A stretch of 64,000 nt of DNA from a phage. Positions 16,606-33,151 of this stretch are shown here, one piece after another; the first letter of the stretch is position 1; each line of letters opens with the position of its first letter. The translations under genes were made by a program, and so were the position numbers. The notes under the pieces are model-generated. The model saw only the letters and a program-made list of their open reading frames with translations, did no database searches and was not told the origin of the DNA. Where the stretch lies: assembly GCA_020241865.1 (NCBI GenBank), contig GCA_020241865.1_4709.1; one strand, given 5' to 3'.

Positions 16606-17916
16606 TTAGGCGATAATGGAGTCAAGAGTCGCTGCGGTTTTGAACAGATCGCTGTTCATTGTAGAAGAAAGGACTTGCTGAATTTCTTCCTGTTTAACCG
16701 CTTTACGAACCCCAGGACGAAGGATAAGCGTAACCATCTGTGAAAAGGTACGATTATTGTTCATCGCACTCAGCGTTTCATCGATTGTTTTGATGGCATC
16801 CAGCGTCATGGAACGAACATCGCTTGGGATATCACGATCTTTCAAGCGTATAATTAAATCTTGTTTGATTTTACGGAATCGTTCCATGTCGTTATCGTAA
16901 ATGCTGTATGTCGGATCTAACCAAACAGAAAGCGCGGTTACAGCGACAACAACCAACACGCCGATAGCACCAACAGAAGCTAAACCTATCGCCATCATAG
17001 AAGCTATAGTAGCATCCATGATGAAGGAGAGCCAGAACATCGTTTTGGACTTCACGGAGTCTTTGCTATAAAGCCGATACATTTTAGCAAGCCCGCTAAC
17101 GAGATACTCCCCACCGCCATGACGCGTAGCGAACTGATCAGCCATGAATTCGGAAGCAACGTCGGTATATCGTCCAGCGTTGTTTACGTTTCTTAACTGC
17201 ATCGCTCTGTTAGACACGTAAACCGTGTACCAGACACTACCGTCGTCTGAATCACTGATTTTGTCTACGTCGACGTTGGTATCCAACGTTTTGTTTAACG
17301 CTTTCGCCAGTTCGATACGTTTTACCTTATCGGTTGTCCCCAACAGTTCACGCTGTACGGTCATGATTGAGGCTTCGACACGAACCGTTTCCGACAATGT
17401 TTCAAGGAAGGTAAATGCGTGCCCGATTTCATGCAGCATTATGGCTGCTTTTTCTTCCGGAAGAAAGGGTTCTGTCGCCGTTAGCAGTTCATACGTGATG
17501 GCAGAACGAATCTTCAATTCTTCAAAAATACCGTAAACACGACCTTTTTCTAAATCGACGTAACCGACAGGTGTATCTTTAATCTTCTTAAGGAGCGTAA
17601 CACCATCAGCACCGCGCATCCATAACCGATGATAGTCTGCCAGGATTGTGTTGTTTGTCGAAATATCCGGCGGGTACACGTAGGCATTCATCCGGCCCAT
17701 TTTCACGTCGACCGAGAATTCGATGTTCAACCCCGTATAGCGTTTAACCATCTCGGTTAAACGACCGTCCTTGAAAACGTTTAAAACCTCTTTTTTATCC
17801 AGTCCCTGTTTGCTTCTGAAGAACTCGGTCATTTCCTTGAACAAGGAACCATCTTGAAACTTGATGGCCTCCATCGTTAATTCGTCATGACCATACACGC
17901 GTTGTAGTAATGACAT
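16606..17916 (-). CDS. M48-like zinc metallopeptidase with C-terminal transmembrane segment
   Basis: HExxH motif (MLHEIGHAF) followed by ExxADxF-like third-ligand motif (SEFMADQFATRHGGG); hydrophobic stretch MMAIGLASVGAIGVLVVVAVTALSVWL. Confidence 0.75.
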   Translation of the reverse strand: MSLLQRVYGHDELTMEAIKFQDGSLFKEMTEFFRSKQGLDKKEVLNVFKDGRLTEMVKRYTGLNIEFSVDVKMGRMNAYVYPPDISTNNTILADYHRLWMRGADGVTLLKKIKDTPVGYVDLEKGRVYGIFEELKIRSAITYELLTATEPFLPEEKAAIMLHEIGHAFTFLETLSETVRVEASIMTVQRELLGTTDKVKRIELAKALNKTLDTNVDVDKISDSDDGSVWYTVYVSNRAMQLRNVNNAGRYTDVASEFMADQFATRHGGGEYLVSGLAKMYRLYSKDSVKSKTMFWLSFIMDATIASMMAIGLASVGAIGVLVVVAVTALSVWLDPTYSIYDNDMERFRKIKQDLIIRLKDRDIPSDVRSMTLDAIKTIDETLSAMNNNRTFSQMVTLILRPGVRKAVKQEEIQQVLSSTMNSDLFKTAATLDSIIA

Positions 17917-17927
17917 TGTACACTCTC

Positions 17928-17945
17928 TAAATTTACGTAAATTTA
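17928..17945. promoter_or_regulatory. perfect 18-bp palindrome TAAATTTACGTAAATTTA in divergent intergenic region, 12 bp upstream of the metallopeptidase start codon
   Basis: perfect dyad symmetry; position typical of operator or translational-repressor site. Confidence 0.4.
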
Positions 17946-18137
17946 AGGGTTCATGGATCGGCTGGCCGCACCAATCACAATGTGTCCGCTGCTATGCAAC
18001 GGCATTCATAGAAATACCTTTTGACGGTAACATCACCGTTCATACCCCAAGCAATAAGAGTGGTCGGTTAAAAACAACAGAACGTGAGGATGATATAGAA
18101 AATCACCTTTTAACACTTATTACGAGTTTATCAAGCC

Positions 18138-19889
18138 ATGAGCGAACAAGAACGAAAACCTAAGAAGAAACTGCTCGGTATTCAATGTCGACACATCAGC
18201 TATAACGAAGCGAACGATGGCAGCAAGAACGACCTCATGATCGCAAAAGAGATCATGTTCTTCGATGATAATACGCAAGCGACGAACCTTCGCTTCTTCG
18301 AGAATTACAAACGTCCGTTTTGGGTGACGGTAGAGAGTAAACGTAAGAACAAATATAAAAAGGAAAGCGAGAAGCTCTCGCATGTGCGTCGCTACGATGT
18401 CCGCCAAAGCGAACTGGTTGAAAAGATCAGCTCGGTACTTTATAAAAGACGTGCTGACGATAACACCCGTTTACAGCAGCTTGCACGGAGTCCATACCTC
18501 TATGGAACGGACGTTAGCGCCAGCTGTTATTTAAAAACCCAGTACAACACAAAATGGCCGGAATACGTCGATAAATTACCCGCTTCCATTGCCTGTTTCG
18601 ATATCGAAACCGACGTTGTCCACGGACACGGTAAGATCGTTTGTATGTCTATTACAATGGGATACAATGCGATACTTTGCTATACCAAGGACTTCGTTGG
18701 TCATATTCCGAATGCCATTGAGAAAACCCATGAGAAGATTCGATATTACCTGGCCGAACGTCTGAATACCAAAGAAGATCCCCACGCATTCGAAAAATAT
18801 CAGTACGATGTTCGAATCGTAGAAAGCCCGGCACAAGCGGTCATCCAATGCATGCAGAAGGTTCACGAATGGCAGCCGGATTATCTCCTTGGCTGGAATA
18901 TCGCGTTCGATATTCCGCGCATGCTCCAGGCACTGAACGAGGAAGGGTATCGTCCCGAGGATGTTTTCTCCGATCCCCGTATACCACCTAAATATCGTAT
19001 TGCTCGCTGGGTACCACCGAAGACCGACAAGGTATCTGCTTCAGGTCGTAAAACCAACCTTACCCTTGAGCAAACCTGGCCGATGTTTTATACGATGGCT
19101 ACGTATCAGGTTATGGATGCGATGTGTGGCTATAAGTTCGTTCGTTTAGGAAGACCGGATGAAGGACGCTATTCACTCGATGCGGTGTTAGAGCGAAATA
19201 AATGCCATACGAAATTAAAAGCTATTCCTGGTACAGAGGGGTTCACGGAGCTTGCCTGGCACGAAGAGATGCAAACGAACCATCAAATCGACTACGGCGT
19301 ATATAACCTTTGGGATAACCAGGGTATTGAGGCGTTGGACCAGAAAACAAAAGACTATTCGATGACCATCCCTATCCGTTTAGCGGCGTCGGATTTGAAA
19401 GATTTCAGTTCTAACCCTAAACGTATCTGCGATAAACTTTTCTTCGTTTATCTTAACCGTGGGGAAGTCATGGGATGTACCGCTGACGACATGACCCAGG
19501 AAGAAGATAAGTGGGTTATCTCACGAGCTGGACATATCGTCACATTACCATGCGATCTCATGGCTGACAACGGCATTCATCTCTTCTGGGATATGCCGAA
19601 CCTGAGAAGTTATATCCGTCTATTCGTTGCAGACCTTGACATTAGCAGTTCATACCCGAATGGGCAGATCCTGTTGAATCTATCCAGAGCGTGTGTTTTT
19701 CGCGAGCTCTCACGCATTGAGGGCGTCTCTGACTATCAATTCAGGAAGTTAGGTATCAACTTTATTACCGGAGGTAAAACGAACGCTGTAGACTTCTGTA
19801 GAATCGTTTATAAAGCACCATCGATGTTTGAACTTTTAGAACATTTCGATGCAACGCGTCCAAAAGAGGAAGCGCGGACCATCGAATGA
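18138..19889 (+). CDS. DEDDy-type 3'-5' exonuclease domain protein, likely N-terminal part of a split family-B DNA polymerase
   Basis: Exo I (FDIETD), Exo II (GWNIAFD) and Exo III (YSLDAVLE) motifs in canonical order and spacing; motif-A-like DLDISSSYP near C-terminus; ORF ends before motifs B and C. Confidence 0.7.
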   Translation: MSEQERKPKKKLLGIQCRHISYNEANDGSKNDLMIAKEIMFFDDNTQATNLRFFENYKRPFWVTVESKRKNKYKKESEKLSHVRRYDVRQSELVEKISSVLYKRRADDNTRLQQLARSPYLYGTDVSASCYLKTQYNTKWPEYVDKLPASIACFDIETDVVHGHGKIVCMSITMGYNAILCYTKDFVGHIPNAIEKTHEKIRYYLAERLNTKEDPHAFEKYQYDVRIVESPAQAVIQCMQKVHEWQPDYLLGWNIAFDIPRMLQALNEEGYRPEDVFSDPRIPPKYRIARWVPPKTDKVSASGRKTNLTLEQTWPMFYTMATYQVMDAMCGYKFVRLGRPDEGRYSLDAVLERNKCHTKLKAIPGTEGFTELAWHEEMQTNHQIDYGVYNLWDNQGIEALDQKTKDYSMTIPIRLAASDLKDFSSNPKRICDKLFFVYLNRGEVMGCTADDMTQEEDKWVISRAGHIVTLPCDLMADNGIHLFWDMPNLRSYIRLFVADLDISSSYPNGQILLNLSRACVFRELSRIEGVSDYQFRKLGINFITGGKTNAVDFCRIVYKAPSMFELLEHFDATRPKEEARTIE

Positions 19890-19937
19890 TTCAAGTAGGT
19901 TGATCCTCGCTTAACAAAAAAGAAAACACATGCGAAG

Positions 19938-19969
19938 CCCCTCCCCCTGGCGGAAGCCGGAGGGAGGGG
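19938..19969. terminator. GC-rich hairpin between convergent genes (polymerase/exonuclease gene and small-gene array)
   Basis: CCCCTCCCCCTGGC-GGAA-GCCGGAGGGAGGGG, 14-bp stem with one mismatch. Confidence 0.6.
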
Positions 19970-19975
19970 TGAGGT

Positions 19976-20461
19976 TTATGCGCGTTCGTTACCAACCGTT
20001 ACTTTGTAGTCAGCGTCGGTTAAGAAAATAGACAGGAATCCATGTTCTTTGCAAATCTTACTAAGGATGTCAGCAATGATTTCGTTGATCATCGGCTTGT
20101 TTGCAAGGGCATAGATGTACCCGGGTGTAAAAGAAAGTGCGTGATTGATCATAGGCTCATGAGAAGCCAAGATAAGGATCACGTGATGCTTCCCATCGTC
20201 GGTAACGACCGCTTGCGTAGACACGAAGAAATCAGTGAAGCAGCAGCGATCACAGGCTTTAGGTATATACAAGTCACCCAGAGCTTCGTCACGTGCTTTT
20301 ACGTGTGTTTCAGGGGTGATGCTGCTAAGTTGATCTTCAGCGAGATCCAAGACATCCTCAATCGTTTTAAGAATAGCGTTGCGGAAATCCTCACGGTAGA
20401 ATGGGATGATATCACGATCGTTCATGTAATCGCCGGATTCGATAGTAAAGTTGATGTTCAT
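19976..20461 (-). CDS. small hypothetical protein (161 aa)
   Basis: ORF in small-gene array; good RBS. Confidence 0.65.
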   Translation of the reverse strand: MNINFTIESGDYMNDRDIIPFYREDFRNAILKTIEDVLDLAEDQLSSITPETHVKARDEALGDLYIPKACDRCCFTDFFVSTQAVVTDDGKHHVILILASHEPMINHALSFTPGYIYALANKPMINEIIADILSKICKEHGFLSIFLTDADYKVTVGNERA

Positions 20462-20531
20462 TGAATGCTCCTAGTGGTTATGTCGATTGATCGATGTATT
20501 GATTTATGTTTGAAGGTGTTGTTCACCTTCG

Positions 20532-20996
20532 TTAGATATCGTCATCCGTGGTGCCGTAGGACATATGCTGAATTAATTTTCTCGGCTCGATGAAAATACG
20601 ACATGTGATAAACACATCGGGATCGTATTGCTCCACGCAACGTCCGAAGGTTTGTTTTGCGGCTTGGCGCATCGATGTTATTTCCTGATCGTTCATCGCA
20701 TTATCGAATTCGATGTTGATCGCGATTTTATCGGGAAATAAATAGATAAAGTAATCGCCGCTGATACCACCATCATCAAAGTGACGTTCATTGTAGCACT
20801 GGACGAGCTTACCTTCACGTTCTTTCTGATACCACCCAAGGATACTATTAAGACCTCTGTCCACGCATTCGAATGCTTGAGTAATAACATCCTCAACGAC
20901 GGATGCAGGCGTGGGACCATTGAATAGACGATCTAAGCGCTTTTTCATCGATTTGGTTTTCTCGTTCATGATTTCTTTTCCTGTTATAATCGGCAT
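20532..20996 (-). CDS. small hypothetical protein (154 aa)
   Basis: ORF; ATG 20996; RBS lies inside upstream GC hairpin. Confidence 0.65.
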   Translation of the reverse strand: MPIITGKEIMNEKTKSMKKRLDRLFNGPTPASVVEDVITQAFECVDRGLNSILGWYQKEREGKLVQCYNERHFDDGGISGDYFIYLFPDKIAINIEFDNAMNDQEITSMRQAAKQTFGRCVEQYDPDVFITCRIFIEPRKLIQHMSYGTTDDDI

Positions 20997-21044: not shown

Positions 21045-21443
21045 TTATGCTTCGCAATCAGCTGAAGGCGTCGCGCCTTTCTTACCAGCGATACGCCAAA
21101 TCCGACACGCTGGGTAATGGTTAACCTCTAGAGAGCAAGGAATGTTATATTTCTCTTCCAGCGCATAAAGACATTTCGTTAGCTGCTCCAGCGCGTTCTC
21201 GTCGTGTCGTAACGCGTGGTGGCCTAATCGATGTTGGTCGTTCTTTATATACGCCTCGAAGAGAACATGTTGGCGATGTACGCTGACGTTTACAGCCTCG
21301 AGTATAGCTTGGTCGAGCATACGACTAAAGCACATCAACGAGTCAGATACGTTTTCTCGCTTAACCAGATCGATCATGGCGGGAATATACGAATGGTCGA
21401 TGTTATCGATGACCGCTTTAGCGACGGAATCAGCAACGTTCAT
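21045..21443 (-). CDS. small hypothetical protein (132 aa), tandem paralog of 21481..21876
   Basis: shared blocks AKAVIDNIDH and EEKYNIPxSLEVN with neighbouring gene. Confidence 0.75.
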   Translation of the reverse strand: MNVADSVAKAVIDNIDHSYIPAMIDLVKRENVSDSLMCFSRMLDQAILEAVNVSVHRQHVLFEAYIKNDQHRLGHHALRHDENALEQLTKCLYALEEKYNIPCSLEVNHYPACRIWRIAGKKGATPSADCEA

Positions 21444-21480: not shown

Positions 21481-21876
21481 TTACTCTTTGACGTCAGTTG
21501 TCGTTTCGACATGCTTCTCACTACTGACGTACCAGAGCAGGTACGCTGGGAAAAGATTGACCTCTAAGCTAAATGGGATATTGTATTTCTCTTCCATTTT
21601 ACAGAGATGTTCTTTAAGTAAATTTCTCGCGTCTCTGTCACCACGAACAGAGTGCCAGTCTAGTTCTTTGTTCTCCTTTACCAGGACCTCTACGATGATA
21701 CGTTGCTCGTGAACCTCGGTTTTCACAGTGAAAAGTAAATCGCTGCTATCCAAACGGGTAAAACGAATGTATGAACCAGGTGTTTTTTCTTGTTTAATAA
21801 TATCGATCATGGTAGAAATGCGCGGATGATCGATGTTGTCGTTAACAGCTTTAACGATGGATTCTACAATGCTCAT
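21481..21876 (-). CDS. small hypothetical protein (131 aa), tandem paralog of 21045..21443
   Basis: shared blocks with neighbouring gene. Confidence 0.75.
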   Translation of the reverse strand: MSIVESIVKAVNDNIDHPRISTMIDIIKQEKTPGSYIRFTRLDSSDLLFTVKTEVHEQRIIVEVLVKENKELDWHSVRGDRDARNLLKEHLCKMEEKYNIPFSLEVNLFPAYLLWYVSSEKHVETTTDVKE

Positions 21877-32197: not shown

Positions 32198-32572
32198 TTA
32201 ATGTTCGTTCCAGATGGCATCTTCCGGTGGAACAATAGGATCTTTCTTCGGCATTGATGGCACTTCATGGCGATGTTTACGGAACTGCCTATCAATAACC
32301 TCACGAAGCCGGTACGCATCAACCCATGTTGATTTATTGAACAGCTCCAATGTCACAGTTAATCGTGTTCTTGACATTGAATAGCTTTTCTTTGCAATCA
32401 AATTGGGATAATTCAGTTGAGCGAACCACGCACGTATTTGTGCTTCGGTAAAAGCGATGCTGTAATAACTAAGTTTACCGTCATTAAAATCGTGCGCGTG
32501 GGTGTAACGTCCAGCGTAACGCCAGACAAGATGCACATTCAGATCGATCCATGGTGGGGTGGTATCAGCCAT
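32198..32572 (-). CDS. hypothetical protein (124 aa)
   Basis: ORF convergent with macro gene across GC hairpin. Confidence 0.6.
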   Translation of the reverse strand: MADTTPPWIDLNVHLVWRYAGRYTHAHDFNDGKLSYYSIAFTEAQIRAWFAQLNYPNLIAKKSYSMSRTRLTVTLELFNKSTWVDAYRLREVIDRQFRKHRHEVPSMPKKDPIVPPEDAIWNEH

Positions 32573-32581
32573 GTGTTACCC

Positions 32582-33151
32582 TCAACGATTCTTCATCACT
32601 TTACCCAGGCTTTCGATATTATCCCAAAAGCGATTTTTACTTGGCGCATCGCCGACGATAACCGACATCAAATCACGACGTTCGCGACTGATGATGCCTT
32701 GTGATTTCCAGATCACCATCGTCCAGCAAGCGGCCAGAACGAACAGATGGTTAATGCTCGGTTTGGTTTGCGCGATGAACGCAAGCCATGCCCAGATACC
32801 GGTGTATACTAGCGTCACTAAAAAGAGCGAGATTGTTGCAACGACAACAACGAAGTTTTGGACAGCGGGTTGATTAGCGTTATCATGAATAGCGGTAAGA
32901 TCAGGAAGATTACCTTCAACTGAACTCGTTTCATCGATTTCCAATTCTTCGATTTCTTTTCGTGTGTCAGGAGCTAATCCAGCATCATCGAGATGCTTTT
33001 TTAACCGCTGTATGCTTAATCGTTGACCGACAGGAATGTTGATGTTGTCGTAACTATTAAGCGCATCAACCAGGGAGCGTCCATCAACGAGAACCAAGCT
33101 CGCGGTACCCATCGTTTGCGGTTTTATTTTGTAAAGGTCTTTTACTTTCAT
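32582..33151 (-). CDS. membrane protein (189 aa, 2-3 predicted TM helices)
   Basis: hydrophobic segments VVVVATISLFLVTLVYTGIWAWLAFI and LFVLAACWTMVIW. Confidence 0.65.
   Translation of the reverse strand: MKVKDLYKIKPQTMGTASLVLVDGRSLVDALNSYDNINIPVGQRLSIQRLKKHLDDAGLAPDTRKEIEELEIDETSSVEGNLPDLTAIHDNANQPAVQNFVVVVATISLFLVTLVYTGIWAWLAFIAQTKPSINHLFVLAACWTMVIWKSQGIISRERRDLMSVIVGDAPSKNRFWDNIESLGKVMKNR

Follow-up and report, generated by a model that had tools for sequence, protein, structure and literature searches.

The term "split subunit DNA polymerase" has been applied to phiKZ and to gp18 + gp44 of SPN3US (PMC5105663, PMC5694885), and both of these papers cite Cornelissen et al. 2012 for the first recognition of such a polymerase, in phage OBP. 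For group 1 jumbo phages, Iyer et al. 2021 (PMC7824862) described a divergent family-B DNA polymerase (PolB) without a fused exonuclease (e.g. SPN3US YP_009153312.1); the exonuclease was regarded as a possible stand-alone associate, a shared active site was not described, and no sliding clamp was known for phages of the phiKZ-like group. Antisense knock-down of phiKZ 050 (i.e. the catalytic subunit) and of 082 each impaired infection (PMC12571901). A naturally split PolB is also found as gp43A/gp43B in the T4-like Aeromonas/Acinetobacter phages 25, 31, 44RR, 65 and 133, where the products co-purify and are active (PMC2988022, PMC3061061). The split family-B polymerase of phiKZ-like phages has been known since 2012, the protein analysed here is essentially identical to public sequences, and the established picture of this enzyme is unchanged by our analysis. 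What is gained is that a core replication gene of a Goslar-like coliphage is now correctly labelled.

The window (i.e. the whole 64-kb stretch of DNA that was analysed) contains one gene whose product is very probably the N-terminal subunit of the family-B replicative DNA polymerase that chimalliviruses (i.e. phiKZ-like, nucleus-forming jumbo phages) assemble from two polypeptides:

18138..19889, + strand: gene for the very probable N-terminal subunit of a split family-B DNA polymerase, 583 aa (ORF list, PHROG, AF2/Foldseek, RB69 profile); domain order PolB N-terminal, 3'-5' exonuclease, first palm segment (bearing motif A), conserved C-terminal tail

This ORF, singled out in the preliminary description as one piece of a possible split polymerase, is real and has an ATG start in the ORF list. 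It is the sole plus-strand gene amid a run of minus-strand genes, and its neighbours are virion and structural genes, not replication genes. In a profile search, PHROG 3011 "DNA polymerase" matched residues 8-576 of the 583 (E 8e-178); Pfam returned DNA_pol_B_exo1 only, as a match too weak to pass the cut-off (E 0.008). Across the first 1493 nt, the gene exhibited 96% nucleotide identity to gp068 of Escherichia phage vB_EcoM_Goslar, and by sequence comparison the window comes from a close relative of this nucleus-forming jumbo phage (i.e. a chimallivirus). The identical 583-aa protein is present on at least 24 public contigs, including contigs of ~238-239 kb. Homologs of the N-subunit were detected by tblastn in 291 jumbo-phage records, whose hosts or groups include phiKZ-like Pseudomonas, Erwinia, Salmonella SPN3US-like, Vibrio, Serratia, Aeromonas and others. 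The ORF is assigned as the ortholog of Goslar gp068, phiKZ gp082 and SPN3US gp44; phiKZ gp082 exhibited 36-43% identity to it by BLASTP (E 1e-71). In the phiKZ protein (638 aa), the SYxLD block and Exo III are set apart by an in-frame insertion of ~80 aa that the window protein does not have, and because of this insertion the tblastn matches to phiKZ-like phages fell into two pieces.

The gene is followed by a structure that the preliminary description had noted as a GC hairpin lying between convergent genes:

19937..19970, no strand: G+C-rich hairpin between convergent genes (sequence, RNA fold)

RNA folding bore this out, giving -38.2 kcal/mol and a z of -3.3. The hairpin starts 47 nt past the end of the ORF, has the convergent gene 19976..20461 (- strand) on its far side and is probably a bidirectional transcription stop. 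It was not called by a consensus terminator scan, because no T run is adjacent. Elsewhere in the window, 21045..21443 (- strand) and 21481..21876 (- strand) are adjacent ORFs of ~131 aa with clearly alike N-termini (MNVADSVAKAVIDNIDH... vs MSIVESIVKAVNDNIDH...); the pair, part of a series of small minus-strand genes, resembles tandem paralogs.

Conservation was counted in an alignment of 54 diverse homologs, 34-66% identical to the window protein. The motifs of the exonuclease domain and the neighbouring PolB block were located as follows:

18597..18614, + strand: Exo I, FDIETD (D155, E157), residues 154-159; invariant in 54/54 homologs; aligns with FDIE of RB69
18897..18911, + strand: Exo II, (W)NIAFD (N254, D258), residues 254-258; invariant; aligns with WNVESFDIP of RB69
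19170..19184, + strand: YSLDA, the PolB 'SYxLD' block, residues 345-349; aligns with PSYSLDYIS of RB69 (~285-293)
19302..19316, + strand: Exo III, YNLWD (Y389, D393), residues 389-393; invariant; aligns with YNIID of RB69

Three DEDDy motifs had been claimed for this protein, namely FDIETD, NIAFD and YSLDA. The first two stood, D155/E157 and N254/D258 being invariant in all 54 homologs, as are Y389/D393 of YNLWD, which is the true Exo III. YSLDA was rejected as Exo III because its Asp (D348) is kept in just 48 of the 54 homologs, and it aligns with the RB69 PSYSLDYIS segment. On this alignment, the DEDDy 3'-5' proofreading site was shown to be complete on the N-subunit (i.e. D155, E157, D258, Y389 and D393).

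The fold of the N-subunit was modelled with AlphaFold (AF2) using the 54-sequence alignment, a single-sequence model having been unusable (pLDDT 36). The resulting model had a pLDDT of 85 and a pTM of 0.80, with residues 7-460 confident and residues 460-583 poor (block means of pLDDT 42-81). The palm strand, which lies within this poor region, was not seen folded; such behaviour would be expected of a palm fragment that is incomplete by itself and relies on a partner. When the model was compared with the PDB using Foldseek, all of the top 50 matches were family-B polymerases (i.e. RB69/T4 gp43, Pol epsilon and E. coli Pol II), the best E-value being 3.6e-13 and the alignments covering ~450-470 columns. 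A profile of the 54 homologs searched against PDB sequences matched RB69 gp43 (E 8e-7) in three collinear stretches, namely Exo I/II at RB69 105-232, PSYSLDYIS plus Exo III YNIID at 270-380, and motif A at 404-430. The comparison with polB structures envisaged in the preliminary description thus came out in favour of a polymerase: with PolBs filling the top 50 Foldseek matches, it represents the N-terminal/exonuclease half of a PolB and not a bare DnaQ-type nuclease. A stand-alone DnaQ-like exonuclease, with its single DEDD domain of ~180-250 aa, was accordingly rejected as a description of a 583-aa protein with a PolB-wide alignment and a motif A.

These results also bear on whether the ORF could encode a nuclease with no part in replication, acting against host defence or degrading host DNA. 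Such a role would suit the intact DEDDy site and the location among virion and structural rather than replication genes, but we regard it as highly improbable, since the protein has the complete N-terminal and exonuclease architecture of a replicative PolB and its gene belongs to the core set, occurring one-to-one with that of the catalytic subunit. Virion proteomics of SPN3US did not detect the polymerase subunits (PMC5694885), and the impaired infection that follows knock-down of phiKZ 082 (PMC12571901) likewise argues against this role. The preliminary description had offered a stand-alone proofreading or anti-defence nuclease as its alternative, which the PolB-wide structural alignment and the co-occurrence with a catalytic subunit do not support.

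The C-terminal part of the N-subunit contains two further features:

19632..19658, + strand: polymerase motif A, DLDISSSYP, residues 499-507; aligns with RB69 404-430
19692..19886, + strand: C-terminal tail, residues ~519-583; no counterpart in RB69 gp43; E523 and N549 invariant; low model confidence

The proposal that DLDISSSYP is a family-B motif A was upheld. D499, D501, Y506 and P507, and then N514 of an N-x-S triplet, are invariant in the 54 homologs, and the stretch is collinear with RB69 404-430. In the alignment with RB69 gp43 (FDLTSLYPSIIRQVNISPET), D501 corresponds to D411, Y506 to Y416 and N514 to N424, by which D501 is the predicted equivalent of the catalytic Asp and Y506 that of the steric-gate Tyr. 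Scored alone in the profile search, the motif A stretch matched RB69 weakly (1.8-4.6 bits), and what makes the match credible is solely its collinearity with the other stretches together with the invariance of its residues across the family. The alignment of the N-subunit ends at RB69 residue 430, and we infer that the C-terminal tail (~65 aa) is a docking element for the catalytic subunit. A second motif-A-like string in the window, DSSSLYP at 32587-32607 (+ strand), was dismissed as a chance occurrence; it lies in a non-coding short ORF over real minus-strand genes (32198..32572 and 32582..33151).

Could the motif-A-like stretch be a non-catalytic relic, carried by a stand-alone proofreading exonuclease that edits for a self-sufficient divDNApol? 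Such an arrangement would accord with the catalytic protein without a fused exonuclease, and the possibly stand-alone exonuclease, of Iyer et al. (PMC7824862), with the weak score of motif A against RB69 when taken alone and with the 120 C-terminal residues left unfolded by AF2. We consider it unlikely. A relic would have drifted, whereas D499, D501, Y506, P507 and N514 are invariant in 54 sequences at 34-66% identity, and the motif A site appears to be repeatedly targeted by homing introns, as described below. Two properties of the catalytic partner also count against a relic and are given with that protein.

The polymerase had been suggested to be encoded in pieces, and this view was sustained: the PolB N-terminal/exonuclease fold and motif A are encoded here and the remainder in a PF20286 (divDNApol) protein. 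Patterns for motif B (Kx3NSxYG) and motif C (DTDS) were found neither in the ORF nor in any of the six frames of the 64-kb window, and tblastn with two catalytic subunits (i.e. SPN3US YP_009153312.1 and its Goslar ortholog) gave no match to the window, in agreement with the earlier statement that no downstream ORF of the window has these motifs. In Goslar, the partner is gp244 (174314-176467, minus strand, 717 aa; Pfam PF20286 divDNApol, E 2e-204), which lies ~95 kb from gp068 on the opposite strand, downstream of the SH3DP gene and near the chimallin gene. The full Goslar annotation has no DNA polymerase besides gp068/gp244. Goslar gp039 ("polymerase") was rejected as a partner, being unlike the SPN3US catalytic subunit and having no Pfam match. 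On Goslar-like contigs, the PF20286 gene directly follows the SH3DP gene (PF20287), and chimallin is two genes away (contig coordinates 2290-2703, 3001-5154 and 6570 onward for this neighbourhood); this order agrees with the conserved neighbourhood described in Iyer et al. 2021 (PMC7824862). The catalytic subunit was found in 302 phage records, with genus counts near-identical to those of the N-subunit (291 records), and the two families co-occur in about 290-300 jumbo-phage genomes. From Goslar and near-identical metagenomic contigs, we infer that the window phage has a PF20286 partner in its own genome.

The residues of the PF20286 protein that are invariant in 54 partner homologs lie in the fingers and motif B (R122, K126, Q148, K152, N156 and G160), in motif C (S404-D-T-D-S408), in KxY (K484, Y486) and in KG (K506, G507). 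This protein was shown to carry fingers with motif B, the palm motif C (SDTDS), KxY and the thumb. A partner profile aligned partner residues 79-145 with RB69 438-505, and gave further matches at motif B (RB69 554-570) and KxY (RB69 706-758). The first 170 residues of the partner contain no conserved acidic residue, the best being D59 in 35/54 homologs. In the partner, motif B is therefore preceded by no conserved acidic residue able to stand in for the motif A Asp, and the alignment of this protein to RB69 begins at 438, just past motif A; both observations speak against a relic. Because of this lack in the partner, the motif A Asp (D501) is probably supplied to it in trans.

As the RB69 alignment of the N-subunit ends at residue 430 and that of the partner starts at residue 438, the break lies inside the palm. 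The alignments place it at about RB69 residues 431-437, roughly 20-25 residues past the motif A Asp. On either side of the break there is extra sequence as compared to RB69, namely the conserved N-subunit C-tail of ~65 aa and a partner N-extension of ~78 aa. No fused N+C protein was present among 232 retrieved homologs of either half (lengths of 457-796 aa). An exhaustive profile search returned 1608 cluster representatives (610 at E <= 1e-30), and no N+C fusion was found among the best 150, which were ~450-700 aa in length with one exception (P0234, 894 aa). P0234 was rejected as an N+C fusion, its excess being a ~330-aa acidic C-terminal extension with no Pfam match that is not the catalytic half, and P0359 was likewise rejected, its extra part being an N-terminal DUF4326. 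P0234 and P0359 are rare variants of the N-subunit, in each of which the added part may be genuinely fused or may stem from two genes merged during gene calling.

Under the preferred reading of a two-polypeptide polymerase, the two subunits would associate non-covalently, probably through the ~65-aa C-tail of the N-subunit and the ~78-aa N-extension of the catalytic subunit. The motif A strand would then insert beside the motif C hairpin to form a composite active site, and the exonuclease of the N-subunit would edit the primer end. It is likely that D501 of the N-subunit and D405/D407 of the partner together bind the two catalytic metal ions. The only experimental evidence for such a pair is indirect, namely that phiKZ 050 and 082 both scored in the antisense screen (PMC12571901). 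With the split point fixed to the palm just past motif A, neither subunit is predicted to polymerise alone, a prediction that is useful for reconstituting the chimallivirus replisome.

Further evidence on motif A came from Goslar, in which gp068 is interrupted by a 1762-nt insertion between codons 499 and 500 (NC_048170.1 81187-82948; window nt 19634|19635), i.e. between the two invariant aspartates of motif A. The insertion contains a group I intron core (Rfam RF00028, 44.7 bits against a gathering score of 50, E 1.5e-9) and an HNH/NUMOD1 gene (gp069); the intron is unannotated. Predicted splicing at GAT|CTC yields a 583-aa Goslar protein identical to the window ORF at 580/583 residues (3 residues differ). 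As the intron was missed, RefSeq gp068 (499 aa) is exon 1 only, and the database entry for Goslar gp068 can be corrected. A homing intron located exactly in motif A fits the expectation that such elements occupy functionally critical sites.

Over its whole length, the CDS of the window shares 95.3% identity with the spliced Goslar CDS. Between 19628 and 19657, however, 15/30 nt differ, all synonymously, as compared to 3.8-4.7% in the rest of the gene, and Ser codons in this patch swap between AGY and TCN. Co-conversion during intron homing, or recoding of an endonuclease target, is the probable origin of the patch. Among truncated metagenomic homologs (P0041-P0117, 457-508 aa), ~15/20 end in ...HVAD or ...HVADLD, which suggests that motif A is a recurrent insertion hot spot, with at least two adjacent positions, in uncultured chimalliviruses.

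With introns active in the gene of a relative (i.e. Goslar), joining of the two halves into one covalent chain after expression has to be considered, by either a split intein or RNA trans-splicing. Split PolBs elsewhere use split inteins (e.g. Nanoarchaeum), which lends this route a precedent. The preliminary description had raised intein or intron signatures in the ORF, but none was found: the ORF has no Hint/intein Pfam domain (E <= 1), and Rfam introns are absent from 17500-20600 at E <= 1 and from the whole window at the gathering score. The catalytic subunit also gave no Hint/intein match at E <= 1. The sole intein-like PDB match (phmmer, E 0.43, a chance value) falls inside the confidently folded exonuclease/N-domain region, the termini of both proteins are conserved, ordinary sequence, and in Goslar the genes of the two halves are on opposite strands and ~95 kb apart. 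Covalent joining therefore has very little probability, and a non-covalent pair of subunits is preferred.

A wider implication of such a pair can be put forward tentatively. With a bipartite active site, synthesis would begin only once both chains meet, which might confine the replicase to the phage nucleus, and motif A would be a shared target of homing endonucleases. In that case, the 30 nt recoded around the Goslar intron position would be a trace of interference competition among relatives.

When compared with described systems, the window gene is closest to the phiKZ-type pairs (i.e. phiKZ gp082 + gp050, SPN3US gp44 + gp18, OBP, and Goslar gp068 + gp244), which are of the same family and architecture and have the PF20286 partner encoded far off in the genome; nothing essential differs in the window, except that Goslar gp068 has a group I intron and the window allele has none. 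The single-chain gp43 of RB69/T4 has the N-terminal/exonuclease fold, Exo I-III, SYSLD and motif A collinear with the N-subunit (RB69 ~105-430). It differs in being one chain rather than two, with an overall identity of 13-16%, and in lacking the C-tail of the N-subunit and the N-extension and long helical insert of the partner. The gp43A/gp43B pair is likewise a naturally split phage PolB, but its split is in the finger tip, as compared to the palm just past motif A here, and its genes are adjacent (2 bp to 3 kb apart) whereas those of Goslar are ~95 kb apart. Distant genes are also found for PolB1/PolB2 of Methanothermobacter thermautotrophicus, which are 85 kb apart (PMC3061061), with a split further C-terminal in the palm. 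The PolB of Rhodothermus phage RM378 is split near the border of the N-domain and palm, before the palm (PMC3061061), such that motif A would stay with the catalytic half, whereas in the chimallivirus polymerase it is found with the exonuclease half.
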